Shown: piece after piece, positions 31,201 through 39,396 of the stretch | Layout: each line of letters begins with the position of its first letter | How positions within the stretch are numbered: position 1 is the stretch's first letter | Source of the DNA: Eledone cirrhosa | Lineage: Eukaryota | Direction of reading: 5' to 3' | Assembly: GCA_964016885.1 (NCBI GenBank) | Contig: OZ024762.1 | Location: 1,860,001 to 1,924,000, forward strand | Length of the DNA stretch: 64,000 nucleotides | Position numbers and translations under genes: made by a program | The notes under the pieces: model-generated | Database searches by the model: none | The model's input: the letters and a program-made list of their open reading frames with translations, nothing else | What the model was told of the DNA's origin: nothing

Positions 31201-31410
31201 ATGGCAGCACGAAATTCAACCGATTCTTTGAAAATAAATGTTTGTTATCAAGAGTTAACCAAATCAGTGACAGTCGCGGATGATACGTCTGTTGCGAGCT
31301 TTCTACCGATTGTAATAACTTCTATGCTTGACAAGAATGTACAAGTACCAACAGGGAAATACAGGATTATTTACGCCGGTTCTATCCTGAAAAATGACAT
31401 GTTGCTGAAG
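31201..31410 (+). CDS. PRKN-like: parkin-like coding exon 1 (Ubl, N-terminal part)
   Basis: MAARNSTD...[18 protein letters not shown] then GTCAGT donor; upstream acceptor near 31184 implies a non-coding first exon. Confidence 0.8.
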
Positions 31411-37400: not shown

Positions 37401-39396
37401 GATTGACCAACAGTTAAAATAACAGATATAAATATATATCAAAGGTATATATTGAGTTAGAAACTCAAAATAGTCTCTTACAATAAAATAGCTCTAAGAA
37501 AGAGAATTTTTCCGAGCCGTATATTATAATTGAATATAAAAGAAAAACGAACACAGATATATACATATATGTGTTCAAATATAGGCAAACCCAATTGTCT
37601 ATAGTTAGTATTCTTTTCACCTTAACGAATCTGGTCCCTTGCGATTTGAACACATATATGTATATATCTGTGTTCATTTTTTCTTTTTCTTTTATTATAT
37701 ATTATTCTTTTGATATAAATATATATAGTCTATGAAAGTTCTTTTGTTGCACATCTGCAACATCATCAGTGGTAATATTATGTTGCCTCCTATTGTATTG
37801 TAATATAGATAGATATATATAGAGATATAGATATATATACACTCACACATGTATGTGTGTGATTGTGTGTGAGAGAGAGATAGAGGTACAAAGAATTAAT
37901 ACATATTTTGCTGTGTAGAGTTAAGACCATAAACATGATCCCTGGAGGCAGACGTGAGGAGTTGATAACCATGTTTCATTGATGTTTTTATTTGTGTTGT
38001 TTTTCTGTTATTCCTGAAGAATCAGTTTTGTCGCCAATGTTCCAGTGGGACCCACCATGGGCCATGTTCCAGAATGCCAGTCGAAGGAATTGACATGGTG
38101 AGATACGTTCTCAGTTTTCTAACAGCTTGCTTTGTCTTTAAATAGATCATCATCATCTTCATCATCATCATTATCACCATTTAATACCCATTTTTATATG
38201 CTAGCATGGGTTAGGCAAGTTGACCTGTTGTGAGATAAGTCAGATCTGGTGACCGTGTCTTTCTCATACAGAACTGATCTTGGTTTCATTTCTATGGTTG
38301 GATGCCCTTCCTAATGCCAACCACATTTACACAGTGTGGACGGTGCTTTTTGTCTTGTCACCTACGCTACCACTTTACAGTGTGGACTAGGTGCTTTTTG
38401 TCATGACACCTACATGACCACTTTACATGGATGCAAAATTAATAACTTATTGGATGCTGTGGTAAAAAGATATTTTACTAAAACTTGCTAAATTCTTGGA
38501 TTACTTTCAAAATAATTTGAAGGAAACTATAGGCAGTGTCATCCCATAGAAACATGGTAGGGAAAGGGTTGCTATTCATTGCGTAGATTATATTTAAGTT
38601 ACTATCTTAGTAATGAAATAATTAATAATTTTAGTAAATCACTCCAACATAATTTTATATAAGAACCTTACATTAACCCTTTACCATTTACATTACTCTA
38701 TATTTACTGTTGTATTTTTGTGGTAAAAGCTTTATTTTACATAATTATCTCGCATAATATCGAATCTACGAGATTTTGATATTATTTATTTTGAGAACAA
38801 TACCTTAACATTAGTATGAGCAGCCAGTTACGACCGGTTTGAACAGAAAGAGACGAGTGAATTTTGGACAGCTATGGCTGGTTTAAATGCTAAAGGGTTA
38901 ATTCAGATATCATATCATTTCTTTTGTAGTTATCGGAAGGCCTGCTGGTCCAGCAGACAGAATGCTTGATTAGTAAAATATCTAAAAAGTGTCCAAAATG
39001 TGGAATAAATGTTGAGAAAAATGGTAAGCAATTCCAAAAATTGTTATTTTCCTCTTTTATTTGTTTTTGTCTGTAGTATTGGAGCGGCAATCTCTTAATC
39101 GGAGAAGTAGGGGCTCTACCTGGAGTGACTGTCTGATCTCCAAAAACACTTCGGAGGATCCTCATTTCAGCTGCTTCTATTCTTCGTAATTGTATTCTTT
39201 TGGTCATTACCCAAGATTCATAATATTTGCATAATTTATCTGATGAATTTGTATTTAATTTAATTTTTTCTTTCTCTTCTCTTTTATTTAACTAGGTGGA
39301 TGCAATCACATGTCTTGTAAATGCAATGCAGAATGGTGCTGGCTGTGTGGAAAGATTTGGTCAAATGCCTGCTTGGAAAAACATTGGTTTGATTAA
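31201..39396 (+). CDS. PRKN-like: Parkin-like RBR E3 ubiquitin ligase (Ubl-RING0-RING1-IBR-RING2), 11 coding exons, 407 aa
   Basis: Exons 31201-31410, 32936-33014, 33423-33556, 34573-34659, 34951-35057, 35245-35381, 35973-36034, 36820-36954, 38020-38097, 38930-39023, 39296-39396. All introns GT-AG with compatible phases; 1224 nt open to TAA. Motifs YVYC..C...[41 protein letters not shown]...HWFD are parkin-specific. Confidence 0.9.
32400..32880. repeat. ~22-bp degenerate minisatellite in parkin-like intron 1
   Basis: (GATATACAC[C/T]TGATCCT[A/T][G/A]CTAT)n. Confidence 0.9.
32936..33014 (+). CDS. PRKN-like: parkin-like exon 2 (end of Ubl with Ser65-equivalent, short linker)
   Basis: [38 protein letters not shown]. 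Confidence 0.8.
33156..33391 (+). mobile_element. tRNA-headed SINE with a CORE/Meta-like central domain (related pieces 26220-26315, 46560-46760)
   Basis: A-box TGGCCTAGTGG, B-box GGTTCAATTTC, central GTTGTGTTCTTGAGCAGAACACTT. Confidence 0.75.
33423..33556 (+). CDS. PRKN-like: parkin-like exon 3 (RING0 start)
   Basis: [57 protein letters not shown]. Confidence 0.85.
33600..33885. repeat. ~33-bp minisatellite; related array at 34705-34915
   Basis: (TCACTACCATGTAGCATCACATATCCTCTACGT)n. Confidence 0.88.
34573..34659 (+). CDS. PRKN-like: parkin-like exon 4 (RING0)
   Basis: [40 protein letters not shown]. Confidence 0.85.
34951..35057 (+). CDS. PRKN-like: parkin-like exon 5 (RING0 end, RING1 start)
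   Basis: [47 protein letters not shown]. Confidence 0.85.
35245..35381 (+). CDS. PRKN-like: parkin-like exon 6 (RING1)
   Basis: [57 protein letters not shown]. Confidence 0.9.
35973..36034 (+). CDS. PRKN-like: parkin-like exon 7 (RING1 end)
   Basis: [32 protein letters not shown]. Confidence 0.9.
36280..36560 (+). mobile_element. 3' fragment of a CRE-like non-LTR element, in parkin-like intron 7
   Basis: [23 protein letters not shown]...[15 protein letters not shown] matches the RLE C-terminal pattern P..VET.G..G..A...QR.S.A..RGNA. Confidence 0.7.
36820..36954 (+). CDS. PRKN-like: parkin-like exon 8 (IBR start)
   Basis: [57 protein letters not shown]. Confidence 0.88.
38020..38097 (+). 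CDS. PRKN-like: parkin-like exon 9 (IBR end)
   Basis: [34 protein letters not shown]; an alternative in-frame acceptor would start the exon at 38026. Confidence 0.8.
38677..38897 (+). mobile_element. piggyBac-type MITE with one internal unit (parkin-like intron 9)
   Basis: TTAA|CCCTTTACCATTTA ... TAAATGCTAAAGGG|TTAA. Confidence 0.85.
38930..39023 (+). CDS. PRKN-like: parkin-like exon 10 (REP-position linker, RING2 start)
   Basis: [43 protein letters not shown]. Confidence 0.88.
39296..39396 (+). CDS. PRKN-like: parkin-like exon 11 (RING2 with catalytic Cys, stop)
   Basis: [44 protein letters not shown] near 39598. Confidence 0.92.

Follow-up and report, generated by a model that had tools for sequence, protein, structure and literature searches.

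The closest described relatives of the gene analysed here are human parkin and its engineered variants. In human parkin, the phosphorylated ubiquitin-like domain (phospho-Ubl) is received by a pocket made of K161, R163 and K211, phospho-ubiquitin is bound at a site containing H302 and R305, and F463 touches W183 (PMC11412986). RING0 is contested by phospho-Ubl and RING2 (PMC11368401). Every change of K211 except K211R inactivates the human enzyme (10.64898/2026.02.09.704817), and mitophagy is intolerant of substitutions at R275, H302 and E321 (10.64898/2026.02.09.704749). The variants K161N, K211N and S65A are rescued by F146A and W403A (PMC10027901; PMC5347139). Here we analyse the parkin gene (PRKN) of the octopod Eledone cirrhosa, which is located at positions 31201-39396 (plus strand) of a 64,000 nucleotide stretch of contig OZ024762.1 (positions 1,860,001 to 1,924,000, assembly GCA_964016885.1). 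This whole stretch is called the window, and coordinates are counted from its first nucleotide.

The gene is intact and is the only parkin found in the genome. RING2 and the zinc ligands are kept; the locks that hold parkin closed (W183 in RING0 and the Trp of the repressor element, REP) and the phospho-Ubl pocket are altered. Judged from the sequence, the chances are about even that it encodes a partly pre-released ligase, which would not need docking of phospho-Ubl on RING0.

Regulatory residues and catalytic core

The protein was aligned with MAFFT and numbered on a mammalian parkin of 465 amino acids (P0069); the numbering was checked against chains of the PDB. From 104 homologous proteins we kept 22 full-length non-coleoid parkins (at least 300 amino acids, with the C-terminal HW motif) for comparison, leaving out 4 coleoid rows and 78 fragments.

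The canonical phospho-Ubl pocket is absent. Exon 3 (33423-33556), which encodes the start of RING0, retains K161 (33494-96) and carries R163S (33500-02), and exon 5 (34951-35057), spanning the end of RING0 and the start of RING1, carries K211V (34963-65). Position 211 is Lys or Arg in 22/22 comparison parkins. The phospho-ubiquitin site is partly kept: exon 7 (35973-36034) retains H302 (36005-07) and R305 (36014-16), and Y312 is also present, while K151Y (33467-69, exon 3), R275F (35333-35) and E321N (36847-49) are altered. R275F lies in RING1 on exon 6 (35245-35381) together with N273T. E321N belongs to exon 8 (36820-36954), which encodes helix H3 and part of the in-between-RING domain (IBR) and also carries Y/F318R, E322A, L325Q, G328D and G329T. 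R163, R275 and E321 are each invariant in the 22 comparison parkins, where the window has Ser, Phe and Asn. The apparent erosion of the activation input (K211V, R163S, R275F, E321N), which the first-pass annotation of this DNA had not mentioned, is a stronger signal than the altered locks. Elsewhere among molluscs, several species have Cys or His in place of R305, and a scallop parkin (P0125) has Phe at position 183. Adenosine-to-inosine editing at 36844-36849 could recode T320 to Ala and N321 to Asp, near the canonical residues. As a restorer of the lost residues such editing was rejected, since it cannot yield Trp, Lys or Arg at positions 163, 183, 211, 275 or 403.

Both locks differ from canonical parkin. 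W183R (34585-87) is located in the RING0 part encoded by exon 4 (34573-34659); W183 is present in 21 of the 22 comparison parkins, the remaining one having a gap. Alignments to PDB chains independently show F146Y, R163S and W183R, so that W183R, first read by eye, is borne out. F146Y (33452-54), which had been listed as a further lost lock, is ordinary, because position 146 is Phe in 11 and Tyr in 10 of the 22 parkins (limpets among the latter; one gap) and human F146Y has an abundance score of 0.99. From the last Cys of the IBR to the first Cys of RING2 the window protein has 31 amino acids without a Trp, compared to 41 in the mammalian protein and 33-48 in the 22 comparison proteins. This linker starts in exon 9 (38020-38097), after the end of the IBR, and continues in exon 10 (38930-39023), which encodes the shortened REP and the start of RING2. 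W403 aligns to Leu349 (38945-47), but with 0% identity between this REP and that of the mammal the match is no more than nominal. The loss of the REP Trp had been noted before and is upheld, as is the shortening; the earlier figure of 8 residues concerns exon 10 alone, set against the human exon length, and the linker as a whole is 10 residues shorter than in the mammal. W403 is found in 19/22 comparison parkins. Three non-coleoid proteins lacking W403 but having Lys or Arg at position 211 are P0038 (Owenia), P0087 and P0096. Its domains, catalytic residues and orthology make the protein a member of the parkin family, but in its phospho-Ubl pocket and its REP it departs from what defines canonical PINK1-activated parkin.

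The catalytic part is unchanged, as had been read from the sequence before. Exon 11 (39296-39396) encodes RING2 with C431 (39301-03), H433 (39307-09), E444 (39331-33), W462, F463 and D464, followed by the stop codon. All 34 conserved Cys/His residues are retained, as are the E2-site (ubiquitin-conjugating enzyme site) residues T240 (exon 5) and Y267 (exon 6). At the N-terminus, exon 1 (31201-31410, coding) encodes the Ubl domain with the I44 equivalent, identified by a weak Pfam ubiquitin match and by alignment, and exon 2 (32936-33014) its end with the S65 equivalent (window S78, 32957-59). H68 is also retained. An activating element (ACT) could not be aligned in the short linker that follows in exon 2.

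From RING0 on, 90 positions are at least 85% conserved among the 22 non-coleoid parkins, and 17 of these are changed in the window (RING0 5, RING1 3, helix H3 4, IBR 4, REP 1, RING2 0). RING2 is thus changed at 0/22 positions versus 17/68 elsewhere (Fisher p=0.0095, with domain limits set by us); without Cys and His the numbers are 0/12 and 17/44 (p=0.011). The same positions are changed 19 times in Octopus vulgaris, 17 times in Argonauta, 6-7 times in Sepia and 11 times in the decapodiform-type protein P0018. RING2 is as intact in O. vulgaris and Argonauta as in the window.

Abundance scores for 12 human variants are available in the PMC10879094 supplement. Values are low for W183R (-0.03), F463A (-0.03), R275F (0.00), F146A (0.18) and W403A (0.35), and higher for W403L (0.78), W183Y (0.81), E321N (0.92), K151Y (1.00), R163S (1.07) and K211V (1.10). 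In that study hyperactive variants tend to low abundance, and most low scores are ascribed to destabilisation. W183R is close to the activating F463A, F146A and W403A and apart from the non-activating W183Y. The first-pass annotation had treated de-repression by W183 mutation as established. This status is not supported, since W183Y has a minor or no effect and is not among the activating mutants in PMC10027901, and the low abundance of human W183R is ambiguous.

Gene structure, orthology and neighbourhood

The 11 exons have AG/GT ends throughout and join to a stop-free open reading frame (ORF) of 407 amino acids, which confirms that the gene is real and that all exons are intact, as had been proposed. 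Four sequencing runs of one study contain the stretch; none of the four is recorded as RNA. A 1551 nucleotide contig of run X4 joins exon 10 straight to exon 11 with contiguous coordinates and no mismatches. For exon 9, the bin depths of this contig are 8.84 as expected for a direct joint to exon 10 (9.46 otherwise). Exons 9 to 11 are thus supported by a spliced contig, in which about 45 nucleotides of 5′ sequence remain beyond the modelled exons 1-9. No spliced piece was present among the matches listed for runs X1-X3. Junctions 1-8 are based on splice signals and on colinearity with the O. vulgaris and Argonauta proteins. A polypyrimidine tract followed by CAG just 5′ of the ATG (31160-31200) resembles an acceptor site and suggests an upstream exon. 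An additional REP exon in intron 9 was rejected: the single computed candidate (38381-38461) has no Trp, the contig fits direct joints and the O. vulgaris linker likewise has 31 amino acids.

Exon 6 matches the parkin RING1 family PF17978 above the cut-off (53 bits). Exons 3 and 4 each match PF17976 (RING0) slightly below the cut-off, and the IBR and ubiquitin matches in other exons are weaker than the RING1 match. All 24 PDB sequences matched by exon 6 are parkin; a homolog search with exon 6 alone gave no matches. The closest proteins, from O. sinensis, O. vulgaris, O. bimaculoides, Argonauta and Sepia pharaonis, are annotated as parkin or PARK2, and no canonical cephalopod parkin is present among the named homolog matches. 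A tree of 32 rows groups the window protein with the octopods (100/100) within a coleoid clade (100/99). This clade is placed among the molluscs on a branch of 88/90 that is not starred, with long stems (1.03 and 1.28). The 10 introns are located at or near the mammalian codons 57, 136, ~178 (a gap column), 206, 245, 291, 311, 361, 389 and 429. These are at or near the positions of the human PRKN introns, five of them by comparison with the human boundaries c.171, 412, 534 and 734 and with exon 5, Gly179-Ala206 (PMC6305656).

The 3.0 Gb genome was searched with exon 6, PF17978, PF17976, a limpet parkin and a decapodiform-type parkin, and no second parkin, canonical or other, was returned besides the window locus. 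The other matches that were examined were rejected as second parkins, being ARIH1, an RWD-RBR gene (RBR: RING-between-RING), other IBR exons, an off-frame match on contig C861 and noise. Two further PF17976 matches (L004 and L006) are below the cut-off and have internal stops. PRKN as a single-copy gene is well supported but not proven, because the searches score first-look candidates only. The locus is most likely the PRKN ortholog and not a paralog as first suggested; that part of the earlier proposal is not supported, and its description of an intact, constrained and differently regulated gene stands.

About 3 kb upstream of parkin, a single-exon ORF of 90 amino acids (27991-28263, plus strand) encodes Gemin7 (PF11095, 89.7 bits). 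ORFs of long interspersed nuclear element (LINE) type with reverse transcriptase and PHD finger are located at 20724-23843 (plus strand) and at 2920-4062 and 5165-6553 (minus strand); the first is a 1040 amino acid open frame that also contains an endonuclease. A head-to-tail repeat with a unit of about 78 bp was seen by eye at ~24510-25110. Another RBR RING2 exon, which we take to be RNF19-like, lies on the contig of parkin, some 180 kb upstream (L012, G000:C23:1682780-1682893). An intronless RWD-RBR open frame of 465 amino acids on contig G000:C1555 (L009) is presumably RNF14-like. In vertebrates, PACRG and parkin are arranged head-to-head. The single PACRG match in this genome (L107, G000:C2:338610384-338610563) is on a contig other than that of parkin, and synteny is uninformative.

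Cephalopod parkins, PINK1 and structure models

Annotated coleoid parkins (O. vulgaris CAI9739973.1, O. sinensis XP_029656806.2, Argonauta GAB1609162.1 and Sepia pharaonis CAE1319314.1) form the clade with the window, and those covering RING0 have W183R and the loss of K211 in common with it. W183R is present in 3/3 octopod and 11/11 decapodiform rows, ten of the latter belonging to one 90% cluster. K211 is lost in every coleoid row that covers the site and is replaced by Val, Tyr, Leu, His or Gln. The W403 site is likewise variable (Leu, Leu, Tyr, Trp, Ser), as is the R163 site (Ser, Arg, Trp); R183 is fixed. Only octopods show the short REP, the remodelled helix H3 and the changes at G328/G329; the decapodiform-type P0018 also lacks W403. 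The Sepia cluster differs from the window in retaining both W403 and helix H3 and in having F463L. The window protein is 63% identical to that of O. vulgaris, and R163S is found in the window only among three octopods. All octopod rows covering the sites retain H302, R305, Y312 and S65. Identity among octopods is 69-80% in RING2, 69-78% in RING1 and 39-56% in helix H3.

PINK1 was located in the same genome by protein searches with PINK1 sequences from metagenome loci and named molluscs (G000:C3:109786058-109803479, minus strand; 549 amino acids, 9 exons, exon 8 being picked from six candidates by similarity). One exon compared with the PDB matches only PINK1 chains. The Lys, HRD, DFG, APE and P-loop Cys motifs are intact; the P-loop Cys has a role in ubiquitin recognition (10.64898/2026.09.05.749644). 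A loss of PINK1 had been considered when a motif pattern matched a non-coding site only, and was discarded once the protein searches recovered this gene. Its kinase core is 39-45% identical to those of 10 other animal PINK1s, which are 46-69% identical among themselves, and has a 3-residue deletion in the activation segment. In a quick tree of 19 rows it has the longest branch (2.25, median 0.34); the sole rate comparison for this genome is the RING2 exon of ARIH1, which is nearly identical to the human one. PINK1 is intact but fast-evolving. No named cephalopod PINK1 was present among the 120 listed of 730 matches, which fits this divergence and shows no absence. A second kinase exon (L110, G000:C26:23268053-23268706) is distantly PINK1-like, with 34% identity over 150 amino acids to abalone PINK1.

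The parkins of O. vulgaris and a limpet were folded with AlphaFold from an identical set of 38 sequences. For O. vulgaris, the predicted local distance difference test score (pLDDT) is 78.8 and the predicted template modelling score (pTM) 0.49; for the limpet, the values are 82.7 and 0.63. On 18 of 19 parkin chains that contain RING2, the superposition of the limpet model extends into RING2 (root mean square deviation 3.8-8.3 Å over the 19); on none of them does that of the O. vulgaris model. The latter matches RING0-IBR structures at 2.2-2.6 Å and has an N-terminal ubiquitin fold (Z ~11.8). Foldseek comparisons agree with this contrast. The models lend weak support to a RING2 that would be docked in the limpet and undocked in the octopus.

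Readings of the locus and comparison with known parkins

A parkin without K211 but with intact locks would stay closed, and the catalytic core is constrained. Therefore the locks have most likely become loose, in the manner of the human rescue double mutants, although we hold this with no better than even confidence. Two steps might have led to this state. In the first, on the coleoid stem, W183R would have loosened the RING0 groove that holds RING2, and constraint on K211 would have been lifted. In the second, on the octopod stem, the REP would have become shorter and lost its Trp, so that the E2 site was freed, and both helix H3 and the start of the IBR would have been remodelled. PINK1 probably still guides parkin via the kept H302/R305 and the Ubl residues S65 and I44, with a phospho-ubiquitin contact that may be weaker or different; the mode of action would resemble the human W403A+K211N rescue genotype. 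A naturally open state, as proposed earlier, is plausible. The farther-reaching version is possible but rather doubtful: octopods would have as their only parkin a constitutively released ligase, which lost the phospho-Ubl key along with the locks and whose coupling to PINK1 is gone in part or altogether.

Several points weigh against a loosened parkin. The fixation of R183 in coleoids points to a new contact under selection rather than to a simple loss, and much of the RING0:RING2 interface survives (W462, F463, P180, F208, L162 and an aromatic residue at 146). S65 and PINK1 are retained. Three of the 22 non-coleoid parkins lack W403 as well, and the abundance of human W403L is far less reduced than that of W403A, for which two cell-based scans found little or no hyperactivity (10.64898/2026.02.09.704817, 10.64898/2026.02.09.704749). 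The low abundance of human W183R fits opening but may equally reflect plain unfolding. At the 90 conserved positions the comparison parkins have 0-10 changes each, a count biased low because these 22 proteins defined the conserved set. The model contrast is weak support because it comes from a single pair, with O. vulgaris and not the window protein, and because the limpet protein, whose fit is loose, is closer to the solved structures (~47% identity, octopus ~37%).

The strongest alternative, tentative in its turn, is a re-wired lock: parkin would still be autoinhibited and PINK1-dependent, with co-evolved interfaces (for example R183 with the acidic/aromatic RING2 tail, a Leu in the W403 pocket and other basic residues for the phosphate). 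The fixation of R183 in all coleoid rows covering the site, the retained W462, F463, D464, P180, F208, S65, I44, H68 and H302, the intact PINK1 with its P-loop Cys, the good tolerance of human W403L for abundance and the many new residues fixed in octopods would fit this. However, coleoids differ from one another at the K211, R163, K161 and W403 sites and have no fixed new residue there, the linker is 10 residues shorter and RING2 is undocked in the O. vulgaris model. It is improbable that octopod parkin has become blind to phospho-ubiquitin and is served by a PINK1-independent substrate or activator. Such uncoupling would agree with the altered R275, E321, E322, K151, F/Y318, L325 and G328/G329, with the intolerance of mitophagy to human R275 and E321 substitutions (10.64898/2026.02.09.704749), with the low identity of helix H3 among octopods and with the very long PINK1 branch, but H302, R305, Y312 and S65 are kept, and PINK1 has an intact ORF with intact catalytic motifs. 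Still less probable is relaxed selection on a PINK1-parkin pathway of reduced importance in octopods, with both genes drifting to low activity. Both branches are long and several changes affect positions where human substitutions lose function (10.64898/2026.02.09.704817, 10.64898/2026.02.09.704749); yet none of the 22 conserved RING2 positions or 34 Cys/His residues is lost, O. vulgaris and Argonauta have a RING2 that is just as intact, identities in RING2 and RING1 stay high among octopods, and the ORF is intact and spliced. That the locus is a paralog of a canonical PRKN elsewhere is very improbable: first-look scoring and a possibly incomplete assembly leave some room for it, but the searches return the window locus alone as parkin with other RBR genes or noise besides, its Octopus and Sepia relatives are annotated as parkin/PARK2 with no canonical cephalopod parkin among the named matches, and the intron positions match human PRKN.

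Activation of parkin is pursued as a drug target in Parkinson's disease, and two questions bear on it: whether animals can live with lastingly de-repressed parkin, and to what extent the phospho-Ubl step can be dispensed with. K211 appears to be lost from cephalopods with large nervous systems; it is conserved as Lys or Arg in all 22 other full-length parkins compared, and its loss inactivates the human enzyme. From limpet through cuttlefish to octopus, the parkins make up a natural gradation, on which both questions can be tested directly. If constitutive release is true, the parkin state sought by activator drugs would occur naturally in octopods, as viable animals. The coleoid proteins are already in databases as parkin. 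No report on cephalopod parkin regulation or on the regulatory remodelling described here was found in the literature covered, a coverage that leaves out most subscription journals.

In comparison with canonical parkin (PF17976, PF17978, PF01485), the window protein has the same Ubl-RING0-RING1-IBR-RING2 order, zinc ligands, C431/H433/E444, S65, H302/R305 and intron positions. It differs by W183R, K211V, R163S, R275F, E321N, E322A, G328D, G329T, the linker shortened by 10 residues and lacking Trp, and the absence of an alignable ACT. With the engineered human rescue mutants, in which W403A or F146A is combined in cis with K211N, K161N or S65A, it appears to share the combination of a weakened lock and the loss of the phospho-Ubl pocket. 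Unlike these mutants the window protein is natural and carries many more changes, including those in the phospho-ubiquitin helix.

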